NCBI GenBank assembly: GCA_964520045.1
Contig: CAZFMJ010000007.1
Span: forward strand, 1-58,928
Direction of reading: 5' to 3'
Length of the DNA stretch: 58,928 nucleotides
Source: an uncultured Elusimicrobiales bacterium
GTDB taxonomy: Bacteria; Elusimicrobiota; Elusimicrobia; Elusimicrobiales; CAZFMJ01
A program made the position numbers and the translations under genes. A model generated the notes under the pieces. It was not told the DNA's origin and did not search any database. It saw only the letters and a program-made list of their open reading frames with translations. This document shows positions 1,119 to 48,782 of this stretch, piece after piece (positions within the stretch are counted from its first letter, which is position 1; each line of letters opens with the position of its first letter).

Positions 1119-4100
1119 CTATTTAAATGAAAGAACGGATTCAAGCAGGCTTAGGGGGTCTTCGAAAATTCCGTTTATCCTGAAGCCGTCGCCGAGTTTT
1201 GAAGGCAGGAAGACGATATTGTCTTTGAACCGTTCGTTCCATGCCGTTACGGCCGACGGGGGGATAACCGCTCCCTGCCCGAAAAAAATTTCAATGCCCT
1301 GCTCCGTCTGGTTTACAAGTCTTATTCCCATAGAGGCGCATTTTTTTCTGGTCTCGATAAGGCGCGCCGTATTCTTCAGCGGCTGGGGCGCCGGTCCGCA
1401 GAGGTCTTCGATCTCCGCAAGTATGCTTTTAAGCCCCGAGGCGTCCGCATTGAGGAATTTTTTGTAATAATTGAGCCGTTCCTGTTCGTCGGGAAGATAC
1501 TGCTCCGGTATGAAAGCCGGAATTTTCAGGTCGACGGCGGTTTCCGGCTCCATGGTCCGGGCGGTTTTTCCCTTAAGCCTGTCTATTTCTTCGGCCAGAA
1601 GCTCGCAGTACATGCTTAAGCCCACTTCCGCAAGAAAGCCGTGCTGGCGCACTCCCAGAAGTTCGCCCGCCCCGCGTATTTCCATGTCGCGCATGGCCAG
1701 TCTGAACCCGGAGCCTAATTCTCCGAATTCCTGAAGCGCCGACAGTCTTTTCACCGCGTTTTCGGACATTTTCCTGGTTTTATCGGTTTCTTCCGCATCG
1801 GGATCGATCCATTCGTCATCTCTTAAGCTCCGCCTTTTCCTTTGACCGCGTTCCGGATGTCCGCCGTCCTTCTTAAGCCATGGGGGATAAAAAAGCCAGC
1901 AGTAGGCTTTCTGCTTTTCCCGTCCTATTCTTCCCCTCAGCTGATAAAGCTGGGCAAGGCCGAATTCATGGGCATTTTCTATTATAATGGTGTTTACCGA
2001 AGGTATGTCCAGCCCCGATTCTATTATTGTGGAAGCAAGGAGCACATCGTATTTTTTGCCGAAAAAATCCCACATCGCGTTTTCAAGTCTGCCGGATTCC
2101 ATCTGTCCGTGCGCCATCACGAATTTAACTTCAGGCATGGCGCGCGAAAGGAACGCCAGCCTTGCGGGCAGAGTCCTGACCCTGTTGTGCACGTAATATA
2201 CCTGTCCGCCGCGCTCAAGCTCCGCGCGCACCGCGGATACGGCGGTATCCTCGTTCCACGGCATTACAAAAGTTGAAATCGGAAGCCTGCCCGATGGGGG
2301 GCTTTCAATAACGGACATATCCCGCAGGTTTGACAGGGTTTGATAGAGAGTGCGGGGAATCGGGGTGGCCGAAAGCAGAAGCATGTGCACGTCTTTTGCC
2401 AGTATTTTGAGCTTTTCCTTGTCTTTTACCCCGAAGCGGTGCTCTTCGTCCACTATGACAAGCCCTATATTTTTAAATTTTATATCCTTCTGGAGCAGGC
2501 GGTGGGTGCCGATAGCTATATCGGCGATCCCGGCTGAAATATTGTCTATGATCTTTTTCTGTTCGGATTTTGTCTGGAAGCGGGATAATACCGCGATATT
2601 AAGCGGAAAGCCGGAAAATCTTTCGGTGAATGTCCTGTGGTGCTGGTCGGCTAGTATGGTGGTGGGGACAAGCACCGCCGTTTGTTTTCCTCCTAAGGCG
2701 CATCTTAAAGCCGCCCGCATGGCCACTTCCGTCTTTCCGAATCCCACGTCGCCCACCACGATTCTCTCCATCGGTTTGGAGGCGGACATGTCTTTGAGCA
2801 CATTTTCAATGGCGTTTTTCTGGTCGGGAGTTTCTTCGTAGGGAAAGGAATCTGCGAATTCATTTTCAATATGGCTTTCGCCGGACAGGGCGGGCCCTTT
2901 TGAAAGGGCGCGTTCGGCTTCAATCCGGAGAAGCTCTTTTGCCACATTCTCGATTCCGGAGCGCACCCTGCCTTTTATCTGCGACCAGCCTTTGGTGTCC
3001 ATTTTAGACAGGCGCGGAGCCTTTCCTTCCGAGCCTATGTATTTCTGGACTTTTTTAAATTCATACAGCGGAACAAAAAGCTTGTCCCCTCCTTTATACT
3101 CAATATGCAGGCAGTCGGTTTCTTCGCAGGCGCTTGGGATGTCCGAACCCGAGATAACCGACATGTGGCTGATGAAATCCGATTCCGGGGATACCTTTTT
3201 TAAGCCCTGATACCTTCCGATGCCGTAATCTTCATGCACCACATAGTCGCCGTTTTTGAGATCGTTCCAGCGGTAGCGTTTTGCCCCCGAGTCGCGGTAT
3301 TTCCAAAAGGAGGCGCGTTTGTAGCTTCGGCCCAGTATTTCGCCGGATGCGATAACCGCAAGTTTTGTTTCCGCGCTGTAAAACCCCTGCGCGATTCTTC
3401 CGATTGCGAATTCGCATATGTTCGTGATTTTTGCGCCGTCAAAGAGCTCTATAAGCCGTTCTTCTTCTCCCGTGTTAAGGCAGAAAATTATTATTCTGAA
3501 CCCTTTTTCCTTCAACCGCAGAGCTTCTTTTTCCAAGAGGGAAACATCGGCGTTAAACCGTATGTTCGAGCAGATTTTACTGTCAAGAGTTTGTTCCGAA
3601 TCCGGGCTTATCGCGGTTATGAATGAGAAGCCGTCGGGCAGCGGCCCAGTCAGAACAGAGGGTTGCAAGTCACTAGTCACCATGTCACCAGTCGGGGGAA
3701 AGTCACCAGATACAGGATTAGTCACCAAGTCACCAGTCAGGGGAAAGTCACCAGACACGGAATTAGTCACCAAGTCACCAGTTACAGAGTCACTAGACGA
3801 TAAAGAGTCACCAGTTGCCAGTCTCCGGTCTTTAGTTTGACTTGTTTTTTTGTTCTGTCTGGTGACATGGGCCGCTGGTGACTGGTGACTTCTGAATTGC
3901 TGTCCAGCTGTCCCGTCGTCCCGCTGGCTGGTGTCGTCGTTTGCAAGGAAGGAGAAGGAGCCGTCAAGCCAATCTCTAAGCGAGGCTTCGCCCTTTTTCA
4001 TCTTTGCCGGTAAAATCGTCACATCATGGACCGGCAGGTCTGTGCGCTGTGTCGGTATGTCGAAGATGCGTCCGCTTTCAAATACGTCTCCCGAAAAAAA

Positions 4101-4613
4101 TAGCCTTACCGGCTTCATCGGTTCAAGGCAGAAAATATCGATTATGGAACCCCGCACGGCATACTCGCCGGGGCTTTCCACAAAATCGGAACGCTCGTAG
4201 CCGGCGTTTTCCAAAACCGACAGAAGACCGGCGCGTTTGTAAGCCGTGCCCGTGCGCAGGTCCATTTTAGCCTGAGCATATGTCTGCGGTGAAAAAATTT
4301 TTTCCCGCAGGCTGGCATAAGTGGCCAGAATTATAAATTTGTCCGCGTCTTTATTGTTAAGCAGGCGGTCGAGAGTGATGGAGCGGGACCATTGGTCTTC
4401 GCCGAAAACAAGGGTTTCTATCCCTTTTGCCTCCGGCAGAACCTTTATCATGGAATCCAGAGAATCCTGAAAGTCGGAAATAAATTCTTCCCGCTGCGCC
4501 GCAAAAAGCAGATTTCTCCCGTTTTCATAAACAAACCGGACCGAGAAATAAGCCTTTGCGCCTATCGTAGGCAGTCCGCAGATATATTTTGGAAGAGAAG
4601 GATCATCAGGCAT
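1119..4613 (-). CDS. mfd: Transcription-repair coupling factor Mfd, carrying a repeat-derived in-frame insert
   Basis: 1164-aa ORF. Motifs: DYVVHEDYGIGRY (CarD/RID-like), VGDVGFGKTEVA (Walker A), VIVDEEHRFGV (DEEH box), SATPIPRT, QLYQLRGRIGR. Confidence 0.93.
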   Translation of the reverse strand: MPDDPSLPKYICGLPTIGAKAYFSVRFVYENGRNLLFAAQREEFISDFQDSLDSMIKVLPEAKGIETLVFGEDQWSRSITLDRLLNNKDADKFIILATYASLREKIFSPQTYAQAKMDLRTGTAYKRAGLLSVLENAGYERSDFVESPGEYAVRGSIIDIFCLEPMKPVRLFFSGDVFESGRIFDIPTQRTDLPVHDVTILPAKMKKGEASLRDWLDGSFSFLANDDTSQRDDGTAGQQFRSHQSPAAHVTRQNKKTSQTKDRRLATGDSLSSSDSVTGDLVTNSVSGDFPLTGDLVTNPVSGDFPPTGDMVTSDLQPSVLTGPLPDGFSFITAISPDSEQTLDSKICSNIRFNADVSLLEKEALRLKEKGFRIIIFCLNTGEEERLIELFDGAKITNICEFAIGRIAQGFYSAETKLAVIASGEILGRSYKRASFWKYRDSGAKRYRWNDLKNGDYVVHEDYGIGRYQGLKKVSPESDFISHMSVISGSDIPSACEETDCLHIEYKGGDKLFVPLYEFKKVQKYIGSEGKAPRLSKMDTKGWSQIKGRVRSGIENVAKELLRIEAERALSKGPALSGESHIENEFADSFPYEETPDQKNAIENVLKDMSASKPMERIVVGDVGFGKTEVAMRAALRCALGGKQTAVLVPTTILADQHHRTFTERFSGFPLNIAVLSRFQTKSEQKKIIDNISAGIADIAIGTHRLLQKDIKFKNIGLVIVDEEHRFGVKDKEKLKILAKDVHMLLLSATPIPRTLYQTLSNLRDMSVIESPPSGRLPISTFVMPWNEDTAVSAVRAELERGGQVYYVHNRVRTLPARLAFLSRAMPEVKFVMAHGQMESGRLENAMWDFFGKKYDVLLASTIIESGLDIPSVNTIIIENAHEFGLAQLYQLRGRIGREKQKAYCWLFYPPWLKKDGGHPERGQRKRRSLRDDEWIDPDAEETDKTRKMSENAVKRLSALQEFGELGSGFRLAMRDMEIRGAGELLGVRQHGFLAEVGLSMYCELLAEEIDRLKGKTARTMEPETAVDLKIPAFIPEQYLPDEQERLNYYKKFLNADASGLKSILAEIEDLCGPAPQPLKNTARLIETRKKCASMGIRLVNQTEQGIEIFFGQGAVIPPSAVTAWNERFKDNIVFLPSKLGDGFRINGIFEDPLSLLESVLSFK
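3660..3940. repeat. GTCACCA/GGTGAC plus CTGGAC short-period repeat block inside the mfd CDS
   Basis: GTCACCAGT/GTCACCAAGTCACCAG units at 3667-3815, a spacer, then inverted GGTGACATGGGCCGCTGGTGACTGGTGAC (3861-3890) and GTCCAGCTGTCCCGTCGTCCCGCTGG. This is the same vocabulary as the intergenic arrays at 9822-9839, 38021-38139 and 53030-53100. Confidence 0.85.
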
Positions 4614-4708: not shown

Positions 4709-5230
4709 GAACGTGGATAATTACCAACATTCGAAAAAAAACGAAGACTAACCGCAAAGAACGCAAAGTAAACGCAAAGGACACGGAGTGAATCCGATGG
4801 AGATGACGGAAAACGCATTGTCCAACCAAGTCATTGGCATGGCGATGAAAGTACATTCCGCCCTTGGCCCAGGCTTATTGGAAAGCGCGTATAAAGAATG
4901 CTGCTACTATATACTCACAAAAAGCGGCCTATGTGTGGAGAAAGAAAAGCCCGTTCCGCTGGTGTTTGAGGATGTGAAACTTGATTGTGGCTATCGTATG
5001 GATCTCCTCGTAGAAAACCGGTTGGTGATTGAAGTTAAATCGGTGGAAGCGCTGACTGATGTTCATCTGGCGCAGGTATTGACCTATTTGAAAATCGGAA
5101 ATTATAAGCTTGGGTTATTGATGAATTTTAATGTTGTAAGACTGAAAGACGGAATAAAACGTGTTGTTAATGGTTTGTAACTTTTGCGTTCTTAGCGTAA
5201 ATACTTTGCGTTCTTTGCGGTTATTTTTTT
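4709..5230 (+). mobile_element. Intact GxxExxY gene cassette with 21-bp perfect terminal inverted repeats
   Basis: AACCGCAAAGAACGCAAAGTA at 4750-4770 and its exact reverse complement at 5202-5222. The upstream leader GATAATTACCAACATTCGAAAAAAAACGAAGAC is shared with the miniature copies. Confidence 0.55.
4788..5180 (+). CDS. GxxExxY family protein (PD-(D/E)XK nuclease-like)
   Basis: 130-aa ORF containing GPGLLESAYKEC (the GxxExxY motif) and a D...E.K-like core (YRMDLLVENRLVIEVKSV). The real start is probably ATG at 4797 or 4803. The gene is flanked by CGCAAAG-rich inverted repeats. Confidence 0.85.
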   Translation: MNPMEMTENALSNQVIGMAMKVHSALGPGLLESAYKECCYYILTKSGLCVEKEKPVPLVFEDVKLDCGYRMDLLVENRLVIEVKSVEALTDVHLAQVLTYLKIGNYKLGLLMNFNVVRLKDGIKRVVNGL

Positions 5231-5243
5231 TGATTTATCGCTT

Positions 5244-6356
5244 ATGGATAAATGGATTGAGATAAACCTTGGGGCGGTGCGCGGCAATGTGCGGAAAATA
5301 AAGGAAAAGCTTTCGCCGTCCGCTTTTTTAACGGCTGTGGTGAAAGCCGACGGCTACGGGCATGGGGCCGCGGAAATAGCCGGAGTCGCCGTTGAGGAAG
5401 GGGCATATGCTTTGGGAGTCTTCGGCATAGACGAGGCGGTCGCATTAAGAAATGCCGGAATAAAAGGCCTTATTTTTTTACTGCGTCCCCAGCTGCCGGG
5501 GGATGCCGCCGAAATAGTGAGGAACCGGCTCATTCCTGCGGCAGACTCCGTTGATTTTATCGCGGCTCTTAACAAAGCCGCGGGAAAATATTTTTACCGG
5601 AAATCATCCATGTCTTCCCGTTTTCCGCTTTATCCGTATCATCTGGACATCGACTTCGGGCTGGGAAGATGGGGGATAAATCCGTCCGAAACAAAGAATT
5701 TTTTATGCTCCGCCGGCAAATTCAGGAACGTACGGCTGGGCGGGGTGTCCACCCACCTTGACTATGTGCCTGGTAAAAATGCGGTGGAAGCCGAGGAAAA
5801 ACTTTTAAAATTTAAGCGCTGCTGCGGTACCGTCAAAAGTTTTTATCCGGATGCCGTGTGCCATGCGGCAAACAGCTCGATTTTTATGGATTTTCCGCAT
5901 TGGCATATGGATATGGCCAGAATAGGCAATCTGATGTACGGAATACATCCGGCCGCGGCTCACGGACAGCCGGTTAAAGCGGAACTGGCCGGATTTAAAA
6001 ACCCGTGGAAGTTTCGCGCGAAAATAATTTCCGTCAAAACGGTTTCAAAAGGGGTTTCGATCGGCTATGCAAGCGAATACATAGCTCCGAAAAGAATGAA
6101 AATAGCCGCCGTGGCGGCCGGATATTCCGACGGAATAACAATGGAGCCCGCCGAGAGGTTTATAAGACTCGGCGGGGCGTTCCAGTACTGGGGTATGATA
6201 CGGGGAAGACAGGCGCCTTTTATAGGCAGGTGCGCGATTTCGCATACGCTTTTGGACGTGACAAAAGTTCCCGGCGCTAAAGCGGGAGATATCGTTCAGC
6301 TTCCCCTGCGCAGAACCGCCGCAAGCCGGGGAATACCGAGGATTTATATACGGTAA
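5244..6356 (+). CDS. alr: Alanine racemase
   Basis: 370 aa. PLP-lysine motif VVKADGYGHG. The N-terminus, WIEINLGAVRGNVRKIK, is typical of Alr. Confidence 0.9.
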   Translation: MDKWIEINLGAVRGNVRKIKEKLSPSAFLTAVVKADGYGHGAAEIAGVAVEEGAYALGVFGIDEAVALRNAGIKGLIFLLRPQLPGDAAEIVRNRLIPAADSVDFIAALNKAAGKYFYRKSSMSSRFPLYPYHLDIDFGLGRWGINPSETKNFLCSAGKFRNVRLGGVSTHLDYVPGKNAVEAEEKLLKFKRCCGTVKSFYPDAVCHAANSSIFMDFPHWHMDMARIGNLMYGIHPAAAHGQPVKAELAGFKNPWKFRAKIISVKTVSKGVSIGYASEYIAPKRMKIAAVAAGYSDGITMEPAERFIRLGGAFQYWGMIRGRQAPFIGRCAISHTLLDVTKVPGAKAGDIVQLPLRRTAASRGIPRIYIR

Positions 6357-6378
6357 CGGCGAAGAAATTTTTACCGCA

Positions 6379-6451
6379 GACCCATTCCTTCCTCAAAGGC
6401 ATTGAGAATGGGTCAGTCCAAACTCATTGCTTCTGAGGAAGGTTTGGACAG
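6379..6451 (+). repeat. Double-hairpin REP/MITE-like element, copy 1
   Basis: CCCATTCCTTCC..TTGAGAATGGG (hairpin 1), then GTCCAAACTCA..GGTTTGGAC (hairpin 2). Confidence 0.85.
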
Positions 6452-6482
6452 AGACGCGGAGGGCGCAGAGAAGCAACTGAGC

Positions 6483-9770: not shown

Positions 9771-9840
9771 AAGAAGACGGTAGACGGCTAACTGGGGAGA
9801 AGAGGCGGGACAGCAATTAAGAAGTCACCAAGTCACCAGC
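9771..9840 (+). repeat. Heptamer (GACGGTAGACGG) and GTCACCA repeats after the symporter stop
   Basis: AAGAAGACGGTAGACGGC...GAAGTCACCAAGTCACCAGC. Confidence 0.7.
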
Positions 9841-9842
9841 CA

Positions 9843-9903
9843 TCCCAAACTTTCAGGTTAATTGGGGTGGCCCATTCTCAAGGCTTTAATGGAAAGAATG
9901 GAC
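9843..9903 (-). repeat. REP-like element, copy 2 (inverted, degenerate)
   Basis: TCCCAAAC..TTGGGG followed by CCCATTCTCAAGGCTTTAATGGAAAGAATGG, which is the reverse-complement orientation of the consensus. Confidence 0.65.
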
Positions 9904-9923
9904 CGTCTACTATCTACCGTTCC
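9903..9923 (-). repeat. Heptamer array; the purine version is on the minus strand, after the stop of the minus-strand gene
   Basis: CCGTCTACTATCTACCGTTCC on the + strand. Confidence 0.7.
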
Positions 9924-11241: not shown

Positions 11242-11928
11242 ATGGAAGAAAAAAAACAGAAAATACTTTTATATGTAAGTCTGCTTATACGTCTGGCATG
11301 GCTTTTACCCGCGAGCTTGTTCGCTTTGTTTTATGTTTTTTTGTTCGCGCAATATGTGTTTATCGCCGTAAAATACGGTCGTTTTGCGATGTTTTTATCT
11401 TTCGGCATGGTGGTCAATACCGCGGTCGGAGGCGTGTTCCTCTGGCTTTGCTTTTTGGCATGGCGCAAAACACGGACGCTTTTTAAAGGGGAAATGCGGG
11501 TGTCTGCGGGAAAGGTGTTTTTGCAGGGCTTAAGCGTTTTAGTCGGATTTGCCGTAGCCGGGATGATTGTCGTTCCGAAATTCACCGACCTTATGAGATA
11601 TTCATGTGAAGGTAAAAACAACGGGAATCTGGCGGTCTTGCGGATATCCCTGGATTCTTACAAAGACGCGAATGGAAAATATCCGGAAGATTTACATGCG
11701 CTTATCAGCGGCGGCGGCGAGTTAAAACAAATTCCATTTATTTGGGACGTATGGGGGGCCCGTTCCCCGCATCCAAGGACGGCGGAAATAGTTTATTATG
11801 ACGGCAGAAAAACCGGGGATAGCGGTAAATGGGCGTATGTGAACAACCCTAAAGATTCCGGCTGGGGAAATGTTTACATCGACTGCACGCATACAGACAG
11901 CAGGGGAACTGCATGGAGCGGGCATTAA
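11242..11928 (+). CDS. Polytopic membrane protein with a C-terminal pseudopilin/type IV pilin-like globular domain
   Basis: 228 aa with about 4 TM segments. These are followed by VVPKFTDLMRYSCEGKNNGNLAVLRISLDSYKDANGKYPEDL, which resembles the segment after the N-terminal helix of GspG/PilA-like proteins. Confidence 0.55.
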   Translation: MEEKKQKILLYVSLLIRLAWLLPASLFALFYVFLFAQYVFIAVKYGRFAMFLSFGMVVNTAVGGVFLWLCFLAWRKTRTLFKGEMRVSAGKVFLQGLSVLVGFAVAGMIVVPKFTDLMRYSCEGKNNGNLAVLRISLDSYKDANGKYPEDLHALISGGGELKQIPFIWDVWGARSPHPRTAEIVYYDGRKTGDSGKWAYVNNPKDSGWGNVYIDCTHTDSRGTAWSGH

Positions 11929-11933
11929 TTAAA

Positions 11934-12041
11934 GAGGGTAGAAGGCAGACGGGAGAAGGTAGACGGTAACCTAAAAACAAAGAAAAGAAACATCTAAGAC
12001 GAAGATAAGCCGTCTCGCAGTCCAGCTGTCCAGCAGTCCAG
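11934..12041. repeat. Heptamer array followed by an octamer (GTCCAGCN) array, between convergent genes
   Basis: GGGTAGAAGGCAGACGGGAGAAGGTAGACGG ... GCCGTCTCGCAGTCCAGCTGTCCAGCAGTCCAGC. Confidence 0.8.
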
Positions 12042-12818
12042 CTAACTGCTTAAAATACTGAAGATTTGTTTTGCTTCATGAAGGAACGACAGGTAAAATT
12101 CAGGTTTTTGCTGAATATTCGCTTTGTAAATCAGAATCCACTTCCCGCATCCTTCCGCATTCCAGCCTTTGGTCCGGCCTAAAGAAGCTAGTTTTGACGG
12201 AGAAAAAAACATTCTTATCGCATTTTCGTCCTTTCCCCGGAGCAGATAATTTTTTGAAAATTCGGGATCTTCGGCAAAATCAATGTCCTGATAGCCGAAA
12301 GCGGAAGCTATTTTGTGCAGAATATTTTCCGGCTGGAGATAAAAGTCCGGAAAAATGTACGCTTCGCGGGCAAACGCCGCCACGGTCTGGATGTGGGTTT
12401 GTCTGTTTTTACCGCTTCCCGTAGTGTATTTGTATTCAAATGAAAAAAACGGCAGGGAATCAAGATTGCCGGAGAGCGTATTGTAAGTTTTTGAGGAAGA
12501 GTTTGAGGAGAAGAAAGACGACGTCTTGCGCGAAAAAAGATTCGAACCCGAAAATTCATATTCCACATTGCGCGGAAGGGATTCGTTGTATGAAAAATTA
12601 TTTAGCGACGCCAGCTGTATGAGCGCCTGCCGGCGCCGGCGAGCGGAGATTATAGAGTAAAGCGCCGCCGCAATTATGGACAGAATAATGACAGGGATCA
12701 GCATCCCCGCCGGAAATGCGCCGCATGACGGCGCTTTAGCGGCGCTGTTTTGCGGGAAAAGGAGCGGTATTAATACCGCTCCCGAAAGCAGTATCGGAAG
12801 ACGGTTTTGTTTTTTCAT
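12042..12818 (-). CDS. Hypothetical membrane-anchored protein
   Basis: 258-aa ORF with a signal/TM region (LLSGAVLIPLLFPQNSAA and MLIPVIILSIIAAALYSII). No motif recognised. Confidence 0.55.
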   Translation of the reverse strand: MKKQNRLPILLSGAVLIPLLFPQNSAAKAPSCGAFPAGMLIPVIILSIIAAALYSIISARRRRQALIQLASLNNFSYNESLPRNVEYEFSGSNLFSRKTSSFFSSNSSSKTYNTLSGNLDSLPFFSFEYKYTTGSGKNRQTHIQTVAAFAREAYIFPDFYLQPENILHKIASAFGYQDIDFAEDPEFSKNYLLRGKDENAIRMFFSPSKLASLGRTKGWNAEGCGKWILIYKANIQQKPEFYLSFLHEAKQIFSILSS

Positions 12819-15651: not shown

Positions 15652-15810
15652 GTCCAAACAAACCTTCCCGCCACTACAGCAAGGCGGGATCTCGCCCTCC
15701 GCCAAAAGCGGAGAGGCGGAAACGGCAGTGAGTTTGGACTGCCCTGAGACTTCGCTCAGGACTGCCTGCTGGACTGTCCCATTCTCACAGCTTTTGAGGA
15801 AGGAATGGGG
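15652..15810 (-). repeat. REP-like element, copy 3 (inverted, with nested inserts)
   Basis: GTCCAAAC..[~60-nt insert]..TGAGTTTGGAC, then an extra hairpin GCCCTGAGACTTCGCTCAGG, then CCCATTCTCACAGCTTTTGAGGAAGGAATGGGG. Confidence 0.75.
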
Positions 15811-18035: not shown

Positions 18036-18042
18036 TAAAGAA

Positions 18043-18108
18043 GTAAGACGGTAGACGGGAGATGGTAGACGGAAAAAAGCAGATAGCATAAAGTAGATAG
18101 TATACAGC
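18043..18108 (+). repeat. Heptamer array after the SEC-C gene stop
   Basis: GTAAGACGGTAGACGGGAGATGGTAGACGG...GCAGATAGCATAAAGTAGATAGTATACAGC. Period 7. Confidence 0.8.
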
Positions 18109-18157
18109 GAAACCGGCGATTAAAAACTAAATCGTTTGTTGCCGCCGGTTTCTTTTT
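18108..18157 (+). terminator. Possible terminator with a large loop
   Basis: GAAACCGGCG ... 25-nt loop ... CGCCGGTTTC, then TTTTTC. Confidence 0.45.
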
Positions 18158-18241
18158 CAATCCTACGTTTTTTATACCTTTGTGCGAGTGTTTTTTACCT
18201 AATTTTCGATTCCTGTATCTTATCGGCCGGCTGTTTTCTTC

Positions 18242-18268
18242 CCTGTCTGCTATCTACTGTCTACCTTC
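18242..18268 (-). repeat. Inverted heptamer arm upstream of the next gene
   Basis: CCTGTCTGCTATCTACTGTCTACCTTC. Confidence 0.75.
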
Positions 18269-18378
18269 TTCTTGGTGCCCGAAAGACCTATGCCGGATAT
18301 GGGACTAAGGACTCTTTGACCGATTTTTGTTTTGGTGTAAAATAACGGATATCAGCAATAAAAAAGGAGATTGTGTTT

Positions 18379-21314: not shown

Positions 21315-21371
21315 GCGGAAAAGCAGAACGCAGATGACAGCGAAGCAGTCCCGCGCAGTTTGCGGGGCGCA

Positions 21372-21444
21372 GTCCCATTCTTTCCTTGAAAGGCTTTGAG
21401 AATGGGTCAGTCCAAACTCACTGCCCTTAAGGATAGTTTGGGGC
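21372..21444 (+). repeat. REP-like element, copy 4
   Basis: GTCCCATTCTTTCCTTGAAAGGCTTTGAGAATGGGTCAGTCCAAACTCACTGCCCTTAAGGATAGTTTGGGG. Confidence 0.85.
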
Positions 21445-21477
21445 AGCGTTATCAGCGTTCTATATTTAGTTGATGTT

Positions 21478-22329
21478 ATGAAAATTATTCTTTTTGACAT
21501 AGACGGAACGCTTGTAAAAGCCGGCGGAGCCGGAAAACTCGCCTTAAACAAGGCGGTAAAGACCCTTCACGGCGCCGAGGATGTCTGCTCAAAATTTTAT
21601 CTTGCCGGAGGCACCGATAAGGTTAATTTTATGCAGGCTTTTATCGAGGCAAAAGGCAGAAAGCCGGCAAGGAAGGAAGTAAAGGCCGTAGAAAAAAAAT
21701 ATCTCGAACTCCTGCCGGCGGAAGTGGACAATGCGGTTAAAGACGGCAGATACATGGAAATACCCGGAGTCGCGCAATTGCTTAAGTTTTTATCAAAACG
21801 CAGAGATGTTTTTATCGGGCTCGGCACGGGAAATCTAAAAAAGGGCGCTTTTATAAAGCTCAAGCCTTCGGGTTTGTCAAAATATTTTATATTCGGTGGA
21901 TTCGGCTGTGATTCCTATGAAAGGGCGGAAGTGCTGAAAAAGGCTGTTAAAAGGGCGGAGAAAATAGCGGGCAGAAAAGCGCGGGTCTGCGACGTGTATA
22001 TTATAGGAGACACCCATAAGGATGTTTCCGCCGGAAAAGAGGCGGGGTATCATACCGGCGCCGTAACGTGCGGTTTCGGCGACCGTTCTAAAATAATGAG
22101 AACAGGGCCTGAGCTTGTTGCCGAAGATTTTACGGATTTATCCCCGTGGCTTATATGGCTTGGGCTGAAAAAAGACCCGAAAGGAATAAAACGCGATTCG
22201 CTGATGTTTCCGGACACGCCTATCGAACATGTGCAATACGCGAGAACAGGAGAAGAGGGTAGATGGGAGACGGTAGACGGTAGACGGCAAATGGGGAAAG
22301 GGAGACGGAAGAGTAAAAACGGCAAATGA
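21478..22329 (+). CDS. HAD-superfamily hydrolase (phosphatase)
   Basis: Motif I is ILFDIDGTLV. Motif IV-like is YIIGDTHKDV. The last ~25 aa (GEEGRWETVDGRRQMGKGRRKSKNGK) are translated from the heptamer repeat array. Confidence 0.8.
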   Translation: MKIILFDIDGTLVKAGGAGKLALNKAVKTLHGAEDVCSKFYLAGGTDKVNFMQAFIEAKGRKPARKEVKAVEKKYLELLPAEVDNAVKDGRYMEIPGVAQLLKFLSKRRDVFIGLGTGNLKKGAFIKLKPSGLSKYFIFGGFGCDSYERAEVLKKAVKRAEKIAGRKARVCDVYIIGDTHKDVSAGKEAGYHTGAVTCGFGDRSKIMRTGPELVAEDFTDLSPWLIWLGLKKDPKGIKRDSLMFPDTPIEHVQYARTGEEGRWETVDGRRQMGKGRRKSKNGK

Positions 22330-22369
22330 TTTTTTTTACCGTTTACCTTTTACCATCTACCTTCTACCG
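22250..22369. repeat. Composite heptamer unit overlapping the HAD gene 3' end
   Basis: GGAGAAGAGGGTAGATGGGAGACGGTAGACGGTAGACGG...core...TACCGTTTACCTTTTACCATCTACCTTCTACCG. Confidence 0.85.
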
Positions 22370-22425
22370 ATTGAAACGGCGGAAAGGAAAATACAAAATT
22401 GGAAATCGCGAATTGAGAATAAAAT

Positions 22426-23289
22426 ATGTCTTTTCCTAATTTTAAGAATAAGTACGGGCAAAAACCTGTTTTCACGGCAAAGGACTATCTTAAATATCTG
22501 GAAAACACAAACCGTCTTCCCGGTTTTAAGCCTCCCGAAGGTATAATTTTCTGCTACAGCCGCAGGTTTATCGAACAAGTTCTTAGAAAACATAAAATAG
22601 CCGACGCCGCGGGTTTCGGCGGCAGAATATATCTATTGGAAGAGTCCGGCCGGCGGATAGGTGTCGCGCTATCGGGGATAGGCGCGCCTGCCGTTATAAC
22701 GAGGATGGAGGAATATATCGCCTTCGGGGTTAAAAAATTTATTTCAATAGGAACAGCCGGCAGTCTGCAGAAAGATTTGGATATAGGAAGTCTTGTAATA
22801 TGCGAAAAGGCGATAAGAGATGAAGGCGTGTCGCATCATTATCTTCCGCCGTCAAAATACGCATATGCTTCAAAAGATCTGACCAAAAAAATTATAAATG
22901 CCGTGAAATCAGCCGGCCTGAAATATACCTGCGGTCCAAACTGGACAATAGACGTCCCGTATATGGAAACAAAAGCTGAAATTAAAAAATATCAGCGGGA
23001 AGGGGTGTTGACCGTAGATATGGAAGCGGCATCAATTTTTGCCGCGGCGCAGCGCAGGGATGTTCAAGCCGGCGCAGTTTTTATGGTGAGCGATTCTTTG
23101 GCGGATTTAAAATGGAATCCGCAGTTTCACTCGGTAAAATTAAATGCGGGTTTTGAGACTGTATTTAATTCCTGCGTTTCGGCCTTGTCGGTAAATACCC
23201 GGCAGAACGCAGACCCATTCTTTCCCTCAAAAGCTTTGAGAATGGGTCAGTCCAAACTCACCGCTTTTATGGATGGTTTGGGCAGATGA
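22426..23289 (+). CDS. Nucleoside phosphorylase (PNP_UDP_1 family)
   Basis: GVLTVDMEAASIFAAAQ and ISIGTAGS motifs. The C-terminal ~25 aa and the stop codon lie inside a REP copy (23212-23284). Confidence 0.8.
   Translation: MSFPNFKNKYGQKPVFTAKDYLKYLENTNRLPGFKPPEGIIFCYSRRFIEQVLRKHKIADAAGFGGRIYLLEESGRRIGVALSGIGAPAVITRMEEYIAFGVKKFISIGTAGSLQKDLDIGSLVICEKAIRDEGVSHHYLPPSKYAYASKDLTKKIINAVKSAGLKYTCGPNWTIDVPYMETKAEIKKYQREGVLTVDMEAASIFAAAQRRDVQAGAVFMVSDSLADLKWNPQFHSVKLNAGFETVFNSCVSALSVNTRQNADPFFPSKALRMGQSKLTAFMDGLGR
23212..23284 (+). repeat. REP-like element, copy 5 (inside the 3' end of the nucleoside phosphorylase CDS)
   Basis: GACCCATTCTTTCCCTCAAAAGCTTTGAGAATGGGTCAGTCCAAACTCACCGCTTTTATGGATGGTTTGGGC. 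Confidence 0.85.
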
Positions 23290-23290: not shown

Positions 23291-23612
23291 GCTGATAATT
23301 ATAAATATTAGGAAAAAAGCCGAAGACTAAACGCAAAGAACGCAAAGTAAACGCAAAGGACACAGACACATTCTTTCCTTAAAAGGCGTTGAGAATGGGT
23401 CAGTCCAAACTCATTGCCTTTTCCGCCTCTCCGTTTTTTGCGGATGGCGAGATCCCGCCGGGCTATGCGGCGGAAAGGTTTGTTTGGACAGAGTGAATCT
23501 GATGGATGAGGTGAAGACGAATTATCCAATCAGGTCGTTGGCATAGCGATGAAAGTTAATGGCTTGTAATCTTTGCGTTCTTAGCGTAAGTTCTTTGCGT
23601 CCTTTGCGGTTA
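23291..23612 (+). mobile_element. Miniature (internally deleted) GxxExxY cassette, copy B, with a nested REP
   Basis: It has the same leader and CGCAAAG repeats and keeps the 5' gene remnant ...CCAATCAGGTCGTTGGCATAGCGATGAAAGT. That remnant is joined directly to TAATGGCTTGTAA (the gene's last codons) and the right repeat. Confidence 0.6.
23367..23490 (+). repeat. REP-like element, copy 6 (with a ~60-nt nested insert in hairpin 2)
   Basis: The insert TTCCGCCTCTCCGTTTTTTGCGGATGGCGAGATCCCGCCGGGCTATGCGGCGGAAAGG is the reverse complement homolog of the insert in copy 3. Confidence 0.8.
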
Positions 23613-23674
23613 AACTTTTTGCGCTTTGGCTTGTTTATTAATGCGGGCGGTTATCTTTATCGGGGTGTTGTAGT

Positions 23675-25947: not shown

Positions 25948-26170
25948 CAGAAGATTAAACGCAAAGAGCGCAAAGCAAACGCAAAGGACACAGATCCATT
26001 CTTTCCATGAAAGTCTTTGAGAATGGGCAGTCCAAACTCATTGCCTCAAAGGAAAGTTTGGACGAAGCGGATCTGATGGGAATGACGGGAAATAGACTGT
26101 CAAGGTAAGTCATCGGTATGACAATGCGGGGACAGTGAATGGTTTATAATCTTTGCGTCCTTTGCGGTTT
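25948..26170 (+). mobile_element. Miniature GxxExxY cassette, copy C, with a nested REP
   Basis: CGCAAAG left repeats, then a REP at the same position as in copy B. The remnant ends ...GACAGTGAATGGTTTATAATCTTTGCGTCCTTTGCGG. Confidence 0.55.
25995..26063 (+). repeat. REP-like element, copy 7
   Basis: TCCATTCTTTCCATGAAAGTCTTTGAGAATGGGCAGTCCAAACTCATTGCCTCAAAGGAAAGTTTGGAC. Confidence 0.85.
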
Positions 26171-26919: not shown

Positions 26920-26958
26920 TAAATCCTACATTTTTCCGGTTGTGACTTTTTAACGGCC

Positions 26959-27016
26959 GTCCCATTCCTTTCTCAAGGGCTTTGAGAATGGGTCAACTTA
27001 AACTCATTCGAGTTGT
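26959..27016 (+). repeat. REP-like element, copy 8 (second hairpin degenerate)
   Basis: GTCCCATTCCTTTCTCAAGGGCTTTGAGAATGGGTCAACTTAAACTCATTCGAGTTG. Confidence 0.7.
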
Positions 27017-27023
27017 GTGGAGG

Positions 27024-27088
27024 GAAGGATGGTAGCTGTTGTTTTCTTTTACCTTCTACCGTTTACCGTCTTCCGTCTCCCGTCTATT
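27024..27088. repeat. Heptamer arms overlapping the GH20 3' end
   Basis: GAAGGATGGTAGC ... ACCTTCTACCGTTTACCGTCTTCCGTCTCCCGTCTA. Confidence 0.8.
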
Positions 27089-29116
27089 TGCTGCTTTTAT
27101 CAGTTTTTCCACGGCCGCGGCTATCATTAATTCAGCATGGCCGTAAGACTTTTTGGCTTCATCCGCTATCTTTAACCGTTCTCCAACCCATGCGCTTTCG
27201 GCTGATTTTCCAGAAGCGATGAAATCCAAAGCTTCAAGCCCCGCCTGCGATATCTTTGAAAGATTAACGGACAGCGGTTCTATTTCCTTCAATATCGGCG
27301 AGTTCTTGATCGTATCCTGAAGCCTGGCGTGATTATCTTTCCATGCGGAAAGGCGCGCTTTCAGGCTTTCCAGAAGAGCCGCATCTCCGGCAAGATATGC
27401 GTCCGCGTCCCTGCGGAAATTTCTGGCCGCCGCCGCGTCGGGCCGGCAGGCGTCCGCAAAGCGGGTGTAAGGCGAAAGGGAGTTATACATTCCCGAAAAA
27501 TGCCTGTCGTAAATTTTAATGGGCTCCGAGACATCCGCCAGAATTTTCAGCGCAGCTATGTCCCTGCCGGCTGAAAGTCTTCTGAGCATCATCTCGTAAT
27601 TTTTTTCATGGGTAAGGCCCAGTTCTTCCAGTTTCAGGCTTACGGTATCCAGCCGCTTATACATGTCTTCGATATCATTCATCTGCTCCGGCGACCAAAG
27701 CCGTTCCGCTATGGCGGCCGTGCGCGGCCAGATGCGCGAGTCTATGTTTTCAGGAGTGACAAGCTCCGACCACATGGTCGCTTCTCCTCCGAGAATTCTC
27801 TTTTTCTCCTCGTCGCTGAGTTTTAGTTCGGGGGTAAGCGGATCGGTCAAATAATGAAAATCGGTGGGCTGGACAAGGTCTATGTAATATCCGGTTGAAA
27901 GCAGACCCATATATCCCTTTTTGGCCGCGTCAGCCAGGAACTCTTTGCCCCGATATGACTGTATCACTATGTTTTTGGGCACATCCGGATGGAGGATATC
28001 GTCCCAACCTACCATTTTCCTGCCGTGGCCGGTCAGTATTTTGGCAATTTTGCTGTTGAAATACGCCTGAAGGCCGCTGTTGTCCTTAATGGAATTCTTC
28101 TTCATGAATTCCTGTATGGACTTATTGTTCGTCCAATGCAGGCCGGTCACTTCGTCTCCGCCTATGTGCAGGTATTCGTCGGGAAACAATCCCGCCATCT
28201 CTCCTAAAAATTTGTCCAGAAATTTATATACATTATTGTCGGTGGGGTTCATGGTGGGATCGGCTTTTATCCATCTGCGTTCCATGCCGTAAGGGCCGGG
28301 AGCGCTGGCAAGCTCCGGATACCCTATGAACCAGCTCGAGGTGTGTCCGGGGACGTCGAATTCCGGCACGACCCTTATTCCCAGTTCATCCGCGTATTTT
28401 ATGATGTCTTTTATCTGCTCCTGCGTGTAATAAAGGCCGTCTGACCCCAATTCGTGAAGTTTTGGAAATTTTTTGCTTTCAATGCGGAAGGCCTGGTCTT
28501 CGGTAAGGTGCCAGTGCAGAACATTAAGTTTAACCGCCGCCATTGCGTCGAGGTTGCGTTTAATAACGTCAAGGGGAAGGAAATGCCTGCAGGAGTCGAT
28601 AAGCAGTCCGCGCCACGCGAACCTCGGCTTGTCGAGTATTTCGACCACCGGGAAATAGTAGCCGTTTTCATCCCCGTTTAGAAGCTGGAGCAGCGTTTCA
28701 ATTCCGCGTACCGCTCCGATGTCGGTTACGGCGGAGAGTTCGATGTTATCAAGAGTTATTTTCAGCGAATAAGATTCGTCTTCGCCGAGCGCAACTTTTC
28801 CGTGCCGCGTTACTTTAATGAGCATTTGAGGCGCGCTGTTTTTATCTTCCGGTGTAACAAACCGCTGTTTTATAAAAAGGCCTGTTTTATCGTCAAGCCG
28901 TTTGAGCATCCTTGAGGCCTGCGAATAAAGCCGTTTGCCGGCTTCTCCCTGAACAGTCACCGTAAAAGAGCTTGTGACCGCGAATCTGCCGTCCATGGCC
29001 GTGAGGCTTTCGGGATACGGCATAAGATTATAAACAGTCGGACCTGCATGGCTGTTTATGCCCAAAAATACCGTTAAAACTGCGGCTGTCAGTAATTTGT
29101 TTATATTGTTTTTCAT
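27056..29116 (-). CDS. GH20 beta-N-acetylhexosaminidase
   Basis: PRFAWRGLLIDSCRHFLP and HIGGDEV catalytic region. I prefer the start at MKNNINKLL (29116), which has an upstream AAAGGGGA. The last ~12 aa are read from the heptamer array. Confidence 0.9.
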   Translation of the reverse strand: MKNNINKLLTAAVLTVFLGINSHAGPTVYNLMPYPESLTAMDGRFAVTSSFTVTVQGEAGKRLYSQASRMLKRLDDKTGLFIKQRFVTPEDKNSAPQMLIKVTRHGKVALGEDESYSLKITLDNIELSAVTDIGAVRGIETLLQLLNGDENGYYFPVVEILDKPRFAWRGLLIDSCRHFLPLDVIKRNLDAMAAVKLNVLHWHLTEDQAFRIESKKFPKLHELGSDGLYYTQEQIKDIIKYADELGIRVVPEFDVPGHTSSWFIGYPELASAPGPYGMERRWIKADPTMNPTDNNVYKFLDKFLGEMAGLFPDEYLHIGGDEVTGLHWTNNKSIQEFMKKNSIKDNSGLQAYFNSKIAKILTGHGRKMVGWDDILHPDVPKNIVIQSYRGKEFLADAAKKGYMGLLSTGYYIDLVQPTDFHYLTDPLTPELKLSDEEKKRILGGEATMWSELVTPENIDSRIWPRTAAIAERLWSPEQMNDIEDMYKRLDTVSLKLEELGLTHEKNYEMMLRRLSAGRDIAALKILADVSEPIKIYDRHFSGMYNSLSPYTRFADACRPDAAAARNFRRDADAYLAGDAALLESLKARLSAWKDNHARLQDTIKNSPILKEIEPLSVNLSKISQAGLEALDFIASGKSAESAWVGERLKIADEAKKSYGHAELMIAAAVEKLIKAANRRETEDGKR

Positions 29117-38030: not shown

Positions 38031-38235
38031 ATCACCGGTTGCCAGCCGCCCAGTTTCCCAGCGACCCAGACACCCAGCAGCCCAGTCACCCGGTTTCCCA
38101 GCCGCTCAGCGACCCAGACACCCAGTCACCCAGCAACCCTTAATCTTGTCTTTAATTCTTCGTGCCTTAGTGTCTTCGTGTGAGTATTGTTTTTTTCCGT
38201 CTACCCTCTTCACAGCTGTCCAGCCTTCTTTCCTT
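38021..38235. repeat. Octamer-period array (CCCAGNNN / GTCACCC) inside the xylG-xylH spacer
   Basis: GTCACCAAATCACCGGTTGCCAGCCGCCCAGTTTCCCAGCGACCCAGACACCCAGCAGCCCAGTCACCCGGTTTCCCAGCCGCTCAGCGACCCAGACACCCAGTCACCCAGC. It contains an internal ~42-nt duplication. CCGTCTACCC..GCTGTCCAGCC follows at 38198-38228. Confidence 0.85.
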
Positions 38236-39867: not shown

Positions 39868-39898
39868 ATGAGGTGATTACTATGGCGTTTACACGCGG

Positions 39899-40101
39899 CA
39901 AACGGTAGACGGTAAACGGTAGATGGTAAAACAAAAACTGATATCAATTTTCTTGTGTTTGTTTTGTCCACTATTTACCATTTACCTCTTTCAGTCTAGC
40001 GTCTCCCAGTTTGCCTTTAGCAATTTAGCCGTCAAGCTGTCCCGCTGTCTAGCTGCCCAGCAGCCGCTTTTCTTCCGTCTACCGTTTACCTTCTACCGTC
40101 T
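39899..40101. repeat. Composite heptamer/octamer unit filling the xylF-xylG spacer
   Basis: CAAACGGTAGACGGTAAACGGTAGATGGTAAAAC ... core ... TTTACCATTTACC...GCTGTCCCGCTGTCTAGCTGCCCAGCAGCC...CCGTCTACCGTTTACCTTCTACCGTCTTAC. Confidence 0.85.
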
Positions 40102-41120
40102 TACTTCTTCATCTGCCTATAAACATCCTCTTTTTTGTGAAATCCGCTCTGCACTATGACTTTATCCAGATTGGCTTTTGTCACGGGCGTTACATCCAGA
40201 AGGATGGCGTCCACTCCGTCCACTTTAGATTTTGCCTTGGCCGGTTTTTTCCCGTTTGCGAGTTCTATGGCCGCTTTTACCGCTTCTTTTATGAGGATGC
40301 GGATATCTTTTAAAATAGTCACGGCCTGAGTGCCTTCGGCCACGCGCTGGACGGCGGCTATTTCTGCGTCCTGTCCTGAGACGGGCACTTTCCCGGCCAG
40401 TTTCTGCGCCGCAAGCGCTTGTATGGCTCCTCCCGCGGTGCCGTCATTTGAAGCCAGAACAGCGTCTATTTTGTTCTGGTTTTTAGTAAGAGCGTTTTCC
40501 GTGTGTTTTAAGGCTTCCTGCGGGCTCCAGCCTTCGCACCACTGTTCCGCGATCAGTTTTATTTTACCTTTGTTGATAAGAGGCTGAAGTATGTTCATAT
40601 GGCCTTTGCGAACCAGATGCGCATTGTCGTCCGCCGGGTGTCCCCCGAGCCAGAGATAATTGCCCTGGGGTTTAAGGGCGGTTACCGCTTTTGCCTGCGC
40701 TTCCCCGACTTTTACGCTGTCAAAGGAGATATAAAGCGACACGTCTTTGCTTGGTATGAATCTGTCGTAAGCTATTACCGGAATTTTTTCCGCTTTTGCC
40801 GCGGTTACCGCTGGTATCACGGAATTTCTGTTCTGCGGGATAATTATGATTACATCGGCTTTCTGCGTTATGAGGTTTTCTATCTGCTGGTTCTGCACGC
40901 TTTCGTCGCCGTTTGCCACCTGTATTATCAGGTCGGCGTTCTGTTCTTTCGCGGTCTGCTCGAAAATCTTTTTTTCGCGCGACCATCTCTCCTCCTGAAG
41001 CGTGGCGAACGAGACTCCTATCTTCACCTTGTTTTCGGCCGCATATACCGTGCTAACCGATGACGCAAAAATATATATCGCCATTGCAAACAGCAATATT
41101 GCATTTATCATTCTTTTCAT
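40101..41120 (-). CDS. xylF: Periplasmic sugar (xylose-type) binding protein
   Basis: Signal peptide, then KIGVSFATLQEERW and the PBP type I organisation. First gene of the minus-strand operon. Confidence 0.85.
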   Translation of the reverse strand: MKRMINAILLFAMAIYIFASSVSTVYAAENKVKIGVSFATLQEERWSREKKIFEQTAKEQNADLIIQVANGDESVQNQQIENLITQKADVIIIIPQNRNSVIPAVTAAKAEKIPVIAYDRFIPSKDVSLYISFDSVKVGEAQAKAVTALKPQGNYLWLGGHPADDNAHLVRKGHMNILQPLINKGKIKLIAEQWCEGWSPQEALKHTENALTKNQNKIDAVLASNDGTAGGAIQALAAQKLAGKVPVSGQDAEIAAVQRVAEGTQAVTILKDIRILIKEAVKAAIELANGKKPAKAKSKVDGVDAILLDVTPVTKANLDKVIVQSGFHKKEDVYRQMKK

Positions 41121-41533: not shown

Positions 41534-41587
41534 ATTTACTAAAATCAAAATAAGGCCAAAAATAAAAGAAAACCACTGAGACGCGGT

Positions 41588-41656
41588 CCCAGTCCTTCCT
41601 TAAAGGCGATGAGAATGGGGCAGTCCAAACTCATTGTCTGTGAGGAAGGTTTGGAC
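41588..41656 (+). repeat. REP-like element, copy 9
   Basis: CCCAGTCCTTCCTTAAAGGCGATGAGAATGGGGCAGTCCAAACTCATTGTCTGTGAGGAAGGTTTGGAC. Confidence 0.8.
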
Positions 41657-41729
41657 GGAAGCCGGGAAACACGGAAAAATGAGTTGGAATTAAAAGAATT
41701 TTGCAACTACTCAACGGCAGTAATATATG

Positions 41730-41922
41730 GAACGCGGATAATTACAAACATCTGGAAAAAAGTCGAAGACTAACCGCAAAGAACGCAAAGAGCACGGAGT
41801 GAGTCTGCCGGAGATAACGGAAAACAAATTTTCCAGCCAAGTCATTGGTATGGATATGAGGCATAGTTAATGGTTTGCAATCTTTGCGTTCTTAGCGTAC
41901 ATTCTTTGCGTCCTTTGCGGTT
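41730..41922 (+). mobile_element. Miniature GxxExxY cassette, copy D
   Basis: GAACGCGGATAATTACAAACATCTGGAAAAAAGTCGAAGACTAACCGCAAAGAACGCAAAG... then a remnant ...CCAGCCAAGTCATTGGTATGGATATGAGGCATAGTTAATGGTTTGCAATCTTTGCGTTCTTAGCG. The deletion junction is the same as in copy B. Confidence 0.6.
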
Positions 41923-42002
41923 TGGTTTGTTTATTGAGGCTGGGAGTTTTGGCGTTTCCGTGGTCAATGTTTGATAATGCAGATAAAAAAGCAGGAGGGA
42001 AA

Positions 42003-46219: not shown

Positions 46220-46261
46220 GAAGATGGTAGACGGTAGAAGGTAAACGGGAGACGGTGAAAA
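46220..46261 (+). repeat. Heptamer array after the glgP stop
   Basis: GAAGATGGTAGACGGTAGAAGGTAAACGGGAGACGGTGAAAA. TAG/TAG/TAA at 46228, 46235 and 46242 fall in all three frames. Confidence 0.85.
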
Positions 46262-46350
46262 GCGGAGCCGTCATTCCTGCGAAAGCAGGAATCCAGACAC
46301 ATGATAGATTCCCGATTAAAGCGTTTGGGAAATGACAGGGAAAAAAGAGG

Positions 46351-47278: not shown

Positions 47279-47427
47279 GACAGCGAGACGGCTAGGCGGC
47301 GAGACAGCGAGGCCGCAAGACGGCTGGACAGCGGTCTGGCAGCTCAGCTGCCCAGCCGTCCAGCAGTCTAGCCTTCTTAAACTGATGGTTCCGGCGGTCC
47401 AGCCGTCCAGCAGTCTAGCTTTTTTAT
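47279..47427. repeat. Composite octamer unit filling the LolA-like/FtsX spacer
   Basis: GACAGCGAGACGGCTAGGCGGCGAGACAGCGAGGCCGCAAGACGGCTGGACAGCGG, then inverted GCTGCCCAGCCGTCCAGCAGTCTAGCC and GGTCCAGCCGTCCAGCAGTCTAGC. Confidence 0.85.
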
Positions 47428-48742: not shown

Positions 48743-48782
48743 GATTAAAAAGGCGGAAAGGTTGAAAACAGAGACTTATAAT

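Follow-up and report, generated by a model that had tools for sequence, protein, structure and literature searches.

Inverted tandem-repeat arms flank GxxExxY nuclease genes across bacterial phyla: a possible intergenic cassette and its miniatures in an Elusimicrobiales genome

Small genes enclosed by inverted repeats, and gene-less repeats of the same kind, are known from several systems, and we compare with them a locus in a 58.9-kb stretch of DNA from an uncultured Elusimicrobiales bacterium (contig CAZFMJ010000007.1, hereafter the window). The window holds four copies (A, B, C, and D) of a unit in which a gene of the GxxExxY family, with PD-(D/E)XK nuclease residues, lies between inverted arrays of short tandem repeats, the left and right arms; copy A is intact, and B, C, and D are miniatures that keep the ends of the gene. 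In the RAYT/REPIN system, built on repetitive extragenic palindromic (REP) sequences, a nuclease-type gene likewise lies between inverted short repeats, the same repeat also occurs as gene-less intergenic palindromic doublets, and the gene is conserved and largely inherited vertically. RAYT is a HUH Y1 (IS200-like) transposase, whereas the window protein is of the PD-(D/E)XK nuclease type and matches PF13366 only; the arms are tandem arrays with a 7-nucleotide (nt) core where REP sequences are single hairpins, and here the gene is multi-copy in many genomes and its remnants persist in miniatures. Pairs of a transposon and its miniature inverted-repeat transposable elements (MITEs), among them Ac/Ds, MITEs derived from insertion sequences (IS), and Correia elements, share with the locus the inverted ends, the deleted derivatives at unlinked intergenic sites, and the nesting. 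They differ in that here no known transposase class or direct target duplication was found, the copied unit exceeds the repeat, conservation of the arms spans phyla, and many of the copies have become fixed at orthologous positions.

Homing endonuclease genes, whose PD-(D/E)XK representatives include I-Ssp6803I and I-Bth0305I, resemble the locus as small nuclease open reading frames (ORFs) in intergenic spacers, co-oriented with their neighbours. Further likenesses are presence and absence at an orthologous locus (radA, five Bacteroides lineages) with spacer replacement, as in co-conversion, and the degenerate copies that a homing cycle predicts. Unlike those genes, the GxxExxY cassette has many insertion loci per genome, so that its proposed target would be the shared palindrome and not a host gene; its conservation is also far stronger than theirs usually is. 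Since the defining enzyme classes are absent, it belongs to neither the RAYT/REPIN nor the homing family. Intervening sequences of 23S rRNA can likewise carry a short, conserved, multi-copy ORF between the two halves of a long inverted repeat in the transcript. Those ORFs encode four-helix-bundle proteins of PF05635, whereas all four copies in the window lie between protein genes, the protein family is another one, and the arms carry no sign of RNA-level selection; neither rRNA nor any Rfam family was found in the window. The heptamers of cyanobacterial short tandemly repeated repetitive (STRR) sequences and small dispersed repeats are intergenic tandem units of 7-9 nt, often hairpins and frequently nested, and the window is full of such arrays. 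The cyanobacterial repeats have no associated gene, whereas here one array family is tied to a nuclease gene.

Copy A lies between mfd and the alanine racemase gene. An earlier note on this DNA had described a 21-bp perfect inverted repeat around the GxxExxY ORF, and the repeat is exact: AACCGCAAAGAACGCAAAGTA at 4750-4770 is the reverse complement of 5202-5222. With mismatches allowed, it extends over 50 nt (4721-4770 / 5202-5251) at 76% complementarity. The left arm (4750..4787, plus strand) consists of four units, with CGCAAAG cores at 4753, 4762, and 4773 and CACGGAG at 4782, and the GGAG Shine-Dalgarno sequence of the gene is part of the last unit. The intact gene (4788..5180, plus strand) is an ORF of 130 amino acids from a GTG at 4788, with the D...ExK residues intact. 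Its true start is likely the ATG at 4797 or 4803 rather than that GTG, because the family consensus reads MTEN..., and the gene positions given below take the ATG of MTEN as nt 1. The right arm (5181..5222, plus strand; CTTTTGCG, CTTAGCG, CTTTGCG, CTTTGCGGTT) begins immediately behind the stop codon. The left arm is preceded by a leader (4713..4749, plus strand; GTGGATAATTACCAACATTCGAAAAAAAACGAAGACT) that is common to B and D and partly mirrored downstream of the right arm; the leader sequence GATAATTAYAAAYAT was present only at A, B, and D, and exact AACGCAAAG 9-mers occurred within the window only at the four named loci. A promoter and terminator scan of copy A yielded nothing above background. 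A cassette directly upstream of an alanine racemase gene was seen both in the window (gene at 5244-6356) and in Arachidicoccus (Bacteroidota, fused murF-alr; L006 1924-3381), probably by coincidence.

The main new result of our sequence comparisons is that the association of gene and arms extends across phyla. A total of 85 non-redundant loci were collected from other genomes by protein similarity, mostly from Bacteroidota, with Ignavibacteriota, Planctomycetota, Acidobacteriota, and others, and arms flanked the GxxExxY gene in 80 of them. The order left arm, gene, right arm was found at 38 of the 85 loci, a complete gene-less palindrome on at least one side of the gene at 20, one clear arm at 16, and arms in swapped order at 6; the 5 loci with no clear arm include two truncated by a contig end or a masked run. 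Arm-flanked genes were present in Bacteroidota, Ignavibacteriota, Planctomycetota, Acidobacteriota, Gemmatimonadota, and Pseudomonadota, which with the phylum of the window makes at least seven. The density of CRCAAAG/CTTTGYG was 11.5 per kb in the immediate flanks of the genes and 0.43 per kb more than 600 nt away, a 27-fold difference. Together with the arms at 80 of the 85 loci, this ties the arms to GxxExxY genes and dispels the concern, raised in the earlier note, that the terminal repeats might belong to a generic intergenic background. Loci seemingly devoid of the motif carry the variant CACAGAG/CTCTGTG.

Each arm is built of tandem 9-11-nt units with the core CRCARAG, spaced at 9, 11-14, and 9 nt, which usually amounts to two doublets per arm, and the cassettes end on the outside in TTAACCRCARAG ... 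CTYTGYGGTTAA (TTAACC...GGTTAA). The core variants were CGCAAAG, CACAAAG, CACAGAG, CGCAGAG, and CGCGAAG; among the 41 loci with a dominant variant in both arms it agreed between left and right in 34, and arms of the same locus paired only moderately better than arms of different loci (median score 36 vs. 26). One locus, L005, has a gene 92% identical to copy A in another genomic context and the same arms. Arms were also present at 45-51% protein identity, in Bacteroides finegoldii, Sphingomonas (fabD-fabG spacer, core CGCGAAG), and Gemmatirosa. A cassette in the nuoF-nuoG spacer of four species (L041, L051, L053, and L066) has the swapped order [CTTTGCG array]-gene-[CGCAAAG array], and there the normally outer ends GGTTAA / AACC adjoin the gene. 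In L005 and in five loci of the groundwater sample Ga0180009 (L092-L096), TTGTAACTACTCAGC precedes several arm families (CGCAAAG, CACAGAG, CACAAAG, ACGCAGATG), and its complement on the right side of L005 gives an outer inverted-repeat layer around the cassette. In the 85-locus alignment, position 5 of the arm core (A vs. G) tracks residues 7-8 of the N-terminal helix (S/N vs. T/E), and position 2 (G vs. A) tracks V122 and the last residue. This covariation was set aside and not used as evidence because it is confounded by phylogeny and by the overlap of the ORF end with the arm; these residues are a lead for specificity-determining positions that may reflect either of those two causes.

Judged by its profile matches, the window protein is a full-length member of the GxxExxY family with the PD-(D/E)XK catalytic residues. 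The ORF at 4788-5180 scored 137.9 bits against TIGR04256 GxxExxY (cut-off 35) and 133.4 bits against PF13366 PDDEXK_3 (cut-off 22), with profile positions 2-116 of 116 covered. D69, E79, and K81 were invariant in a 30-sequence alignment, and the window copy has RMDLL...IEVK. In profile searches PF13366 was the sole family and no PHROG family was matched, so that no known transposase class was found in the cassette, and PADLOC gave marginal Cas4 similarity only. A sequence search of the PDB with the protein returned no match. An AlphaFold2 model reached a pLDDT of 71, and its Foldseek matches were all PD-(D/E)XK enzymes at E values of 0.2 or worse, which is not significant; the top match, itself non-significant, was the homing endonuclease 3r3p. 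No relatives were found among IMG/VR viral contigs, and plasmid-borne relatives were limited to eight distant members. The family comprises 23,373 clusters at 50% identity and is annotated across many bacterial phyla with next to no literature; in the literature searched under the family names, the accessions, and the arm sequences, no description of the gene-arm association was found. Three proteins (P0241, P0242, and P0245) are 270-295-residue fusions of two GxxExxY domains. Because such fusions exist and their second domain has lost D...ExK, they suggest that the GxxExxY protein may work as a dimer, the fusions being an evolved single-chain pseudo-dimer.

By sequence comparison, both gene and arms are under strong purifying selection. 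A check for such selection on full copies, proposed in the earlier note, gave a ratio of nonsynonymous to synonymous divergence (dN/dS) of 0.09 for gene A vs. L005, and the left arms of these two copies were identical at 37 of 38 positions although 31% of synonymous sites differ. Between phyla the synonymous sites were saturated (median pS 0.86; pN about 0.19), and for this reason the 75-82% protein identity seen across phyla reflects strong constraint and not recent transfer. It is the sequence of the arms, and not complementarity alone, that is kept across phyla, and this points to a conserved factor that recognises the sequence specifically; the equally conserved protein encoded between the arms would be the most economical candidate. 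A hidden nucleotide signal in the gene ends that the miniatures retain was also looked for, and no synonymous-site constraint was found at either end.

The three miniatures all retain the left arm, the Shine-Dalgarno region, the 5' end of the gene, gene nt 364 to the stop codon, and the right arm, as determined by alignment and breakpoint mapping. Miniature B (23291..23641, plus strand) consists of leader, left arm (23328-23363), a REP-like insert (23364-23489), gene nt 1-48 joined to 364-stop, and right arm to 23611, followed by a conserved right flank, GGCTTGTTTATTAA, common to L005 and L094. Miniature C (25948..26170, plus strand) has a left arm at 25956-25991, a REP-like insert at 25992-26063, gene nt 1-53 joined to 364-stop, and a right arm shortened by one doublet; it occupies the spacer between the gene for glutamate formimidoyltransferase / formiminotransferase (FTCD) and the next gene. 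Miniature D (41734..41937, plus strand) consists of leader, a left arm with one unit fewer (41772-41795), gene nt 1 to about 46-52 joined to 364-stop, and right arm to 41922, beyond which the right flank is conserved over a short distance. The copied unit thus exceeds the 21-bp repeat, with the leader at A, B, and D and the right flank common to B, L005, and L094. The deletion in B corresponds, as had been proposed, to a join of 4852 to 5168 of copy A. The further claim that the junction lies at the same place in all three miniatures holds with a tolerance of a few bases: all three have the same 3' breakpoint (gene nt 364), whereas the 5' breakpoints (48 in B, 53 in C, and 46-52 in D) spread over about 5 nt. 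The coding remnant of B is frameshifted, and the miniatures are therefore dead remnants. The REP-like inserts of B and C do share one internal site (GGACAC|AGAGTG); they are not each other's closest relatives, and the shared site need not mark common descent of the two miniatures and may reflect site preference.

Two derived states set B, C, and D apart from the full copies A and L005: GAATCC has become ..TCT, and the outer right unit reads GTCCTTTGCGG. Because the 3' breakpoint and both substitutions are shared, the data point to descent of B, C, and D from one deleted ancestor that was copied. Elsewhere miniatures arose repeatedly with other junctions, so the earlier argument that an identical deletion implies copying of one derivative stands within this lineage only. 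Each miniature is more similar to A (0.76-0.87) than miniatures are to one another (0.72-0.78), which is expected if miniatures drift freely and full copies are constrained, and which leaves room for independent deletions.

Empty sites in relatives, which the earlier note had proposed looking for, were found at two of the loci. Homologues of the FTCD gene, which come from groundwater metagenomes, assign the window to Elusimicrobiota. The two nearest Elusimicrobiota relatives on record (L097 and L098; FTCD identity 78% and 76%) have the same gene order as the window, and at the site of miniature C their spacers are 20 and 9 nt long vs. 260 nt in the window. At the site of miniature B the genes overlap in L097, the only relative contig reaching it. 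These compact arrangements mark the miniatures as insertions in this lineage, at a distance between relatives too large to define exact insertion boundaries. The neighbours are a phosphorylase-family gene and a methyltransferase at B, the FTCD gene and a secreted coiled-coil protein at C, and a periplasmic binding protein and an unknown gene at D. As the flanking genes at A, B, C, and D are unrelated, the four loci are not paralogous segmental duplications.

Miniatures were also present in other genomes. A scan of JGI metagenome contigs, a collection that evidently lacks the remainder of this genome, with the window-type miniature junction gave no match, and a left-arm 23-mer found five loci there, all of them miniatures from one other sample. 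These are the Ga0180009 loci, whose arms and 3' start (TTAATGG) match those of the window miniatures, with differing 5' junctions and filler. In L057 (Pyrinomonadaceae, Acidobacteriota; 2210-4240) one full gene has a miniature just upstream and at least six tandem miniatures downstream at a period of about 210 nt, each retaining the first 50 nt or so of the gene and its end from about nt 345 onward. A similar tandem array surrounds one full gene in L040 (Prolixibacteraceae, Bacteroidota; 2250-3700), with a period of about 160 nt. Miniature formation is therefore recurrent and can involve local amplification as well as dispersal, and a 5' breakpoint near nt 50 recurs in two phyla. Gene-less palindromes with abutting left and right arms were found at L009 and L074, and a miniature without gene remnant at L094.

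Comparison of orthologous spacers showed, at the level of sequence, that full cassettes are gained and lost. In B. finegoldii a cassette fills the spacer between radA and the gene of an FAD-protein, and the parts of the spacer outside it measure just 1 and 5 nt. Four Bacteroides relatives with the same gene order (RadA identity 99%, 96%, 96%, and 94%) have no cassette and spacers of 80, 66, 65, and 13 nt, respectively. No part of the closest relative's 80-nt spacer is kept in the filled allele; it was replaced and not split, a pattern easier to reconcile with allelic recombination than with simple insertion. The 13-nt spacer (L103 3869-3881, TTCACCATAAGCT) opens with TTCACCA, the outer 7 nt of the B. 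finegoldii cassette, and may be either the footprint of an excision or a favoured site of entry.

Our tentative reading, which we hold with rather less than even confidence, is that the gene and its arms form a cassette in which a nuclease is encoded inside the very palindrome that it recognises, that the miniatures are degenerate derivatives of this cassette, and that it spreads by break-induced recombination among copies or alleles. The arms would be sequence-specific recognition sites of the encoded nuclease, acting on DNA; the nuclease would break DNA at arm palindromes, and repair of the break off another copy would carry the gene into gene-less palindromes, or whole units between copies or alleles. 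A homing-like cycle of invasion, degeneration to miniatures, and loss would follow; in it B, C, and D would go back to a single degenerate copy, and any movement that they still undergo would rely on intact copies such as A. The broader proposal, that GxxExxY genes and CRCARAG arrays constitute a class of self-propagating intergenic cassettes that spans the bacteria and had gone unrecognised, and in which the nuclease recognises and cuts the palindrome carrying it, strikes us as possible and rather doubtful. Of the autonomous and MITE-like pair envisaged in the earlier note, the shared inverted ends, deleted derivatives, unlinked sites, and empty sites stood, whereas nuclease-driven movement and a direct target duplication did not emerge from the data.

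Several observations weigh against the proposed cassette. A search of the flanks for direct target-site duplications found none at A-D or at 55 other loci, the palindromic TTAA / TAA ends being ambiguous in this respect; a look-alike direct repeat beside miniature C proved to be the A-rich setting of ribosome-binding sites that is widespread in this genome. The gene shows far stronger conservation than selfish nucleases typically do. Many cassettes stay at orthologous spacers in different genera (four species at nuoF-nuoG, three at a Cyclobacteriaceae locus), and such long-term retention argues for low mobility or a host-useful role. The nuoF-nuoG lineage is conserved in the order [right arm]-gene-[left arm]. 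Gene-less inverted tandem-repeat hairpins with 7- and 8-nt units also exist in this genome, and such palindromes can therefore arise without GxxExxY. The structural support is modest, with a moderate model and no significant Foldseek match, and the gene is co-oriented with its upstream neighbour at 69 of 76 loci and with its downstream neighbour at 65 of 78, a bias strong enough that transcription context matters and one that hints that transcription plays a part.

This last point belongs equally to an explanation at the RNA level, in which the arms pair in the transcript and the stem around the ORF governs how the operon mRNA is translated, how stable it is, or how it is processed by an enzyme of RNase III type, much as with the ORF-bearing intervening sequences of 23S rRNA; the miniatures would persist because their stem benefits the host or at any rate does no harm. 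We consider this unlikely, though a serious alternative. The predicted RNA stem does enclose the ORF (copy A -145 kcal/mol, z -3.5; miniature D -51.8 kcal/mol, z -3.1), cassettes sit within operons (fabD-fabG and nuoF-nuoG, for example), pairing would survive a swap of the arms, and the last left unit holds the Shine-Dalgarno sequence. Against these stand the details of the pairing: over 63 loci, the arms are complementary at a median of 79% over about 44 nt, and their mismatches comprise 120 G:U-compatible ones in the sense vs. 128 in the antisense orientation and 443 transversions. With no sense-strand G:U excess and mostly transversions, recognition at the DNA level is favoured over an RNA stem, although these counts are mild evidence. 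A purely structural stem would moreover drift, whereas the motif sequence is kept across phyla, regular tandem units are unneeded for a stem, and covariance models of Rfam 15 gave no match at gathering score in the window, with chance miRNA-like matches only in 11 loci.

Cassette and palindrome could also have separate origins, the palindrome being an independent REPIN- or MITE-type repeat family spread by another enzyme or by replication and repair, and GxxExxY a passenger that preferentially inserts at its centre or is carried along. The clean gene-less palindromes (L009 and L074), the miniature devoid of gene remnant (L094), the many cargo-free tandem-repeat hairpin families in this genome and in the Ga0180009 organism (L092-L096), and the nesting of elements within one another all speak for such an origin. 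We judge it fairly improbable, given that every CGCAAAG array in the window bears the gene or its remnants, that arrays are so enriched beside GxxExxY genes, and that an association reaching down to 45% protein identity and across phyla is hard to sustain without a functional link. Decay in place of four ancient full copies, with the similar junctions of B, C, and D due to a deletion hot spot, appears more improbable again. It would account for the greater similarity of each miniature to A, and there are precedents in the Acidobacteriota miniatures, which share the 5' breakpoint codon (nt about 50) and differ at the 3' side, and in those of Ga0180009, which share the 3' start and differ in their 5' ends. 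The identical 3' breakpoint and the two derived substitutions of B, C, and D argue against it, star-like distances are also expected from freely drifting miniatures and constrained full copies, and the breakpoints show neither synonymous-site constraint nor an obvious repeat from which a hot spot could arise. That the four loci resemble one another by chance or through segmental duplication is hardly credible: the miniature-junction pattern matched exactly B, C, and D in the window, three matches vs. none in shuffles, and the flanking genes come from unrelated families.

Other repeats are abundant in the window. A REP-like element of about 75 nt, with hairpins CCCATTCYTTCC..GAGAATGGG and GTCCAAAC..GTTTGGAC, is present in 11 copies (6375-6452, 9840-9905 and 15690-15800 on the minus strand, 21369-21446, 23209-23286, 23364-23489, 25992-26063, 26955-27032, 41582-41659, 50019-50096, and 52441-52520), some of them nested in miniatures B and C and in heptamer arrays. 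Its second stem co-varies between copies, and its first 2-3 nt often recur just after the element (AGA/AGA, GGT/GGA), which may be a tiny target duplication. Gene-free tandem-heptamer hairpins, (AGACGGT)n followed by (ACCGTCT)n with the purine-rich arm always first, occupy most spacers, above all at 46-57 kb (11919-11990, 18039-18272, 22254-22387, 27042-27095, 39886-40123, 46215-46262, 48632-48761, 50098-50234, 50903-51060, 52360-52560, and 56218-56392). Arrays of 8-nt units, of the CCCAGNNN and GCTGTCCA/GCGAGACG types and with up to 12 copies, lie beside gene ends, some as inverted pairs (1070-1120, 12017-12049, 38033-38147, 40020-40067, 47283-47425, 54018-54043, and 58838-58863). Within mfd (minus strand, 1119-4613), an in-frame 45-nt tandem repeat of GTCACCA units at 3674-3823 encodes a low-complexity segment (..VTGDLVTNSVSGDFPLTGDLVTNPVSGDFPPTGDMVTS..). 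The same unit is found in spacers at about 9826-9845 and 53031-53065, and an intergenic-type repeat seems to have been absorbed into the coding region.

The association turns an orphan family without known function into a system with a predicted nucleic-acid partner. It would account for one kind of intergenic palindrome, present in Bacteroidota, Elusimicrobiota, and other phyla, that complicates assembly and annotation and sits within essential operons. If the nuclease is sequence- or structure-specific for the arms, it would provide a compact recognition module of 125 amino acids. If the proposed cassette is real, a family of more than 20,000 sequence clusters would gain a function and a substrate, and would represent an analogue of the RAYT/REPIN or homing systems based on a different enzyme.

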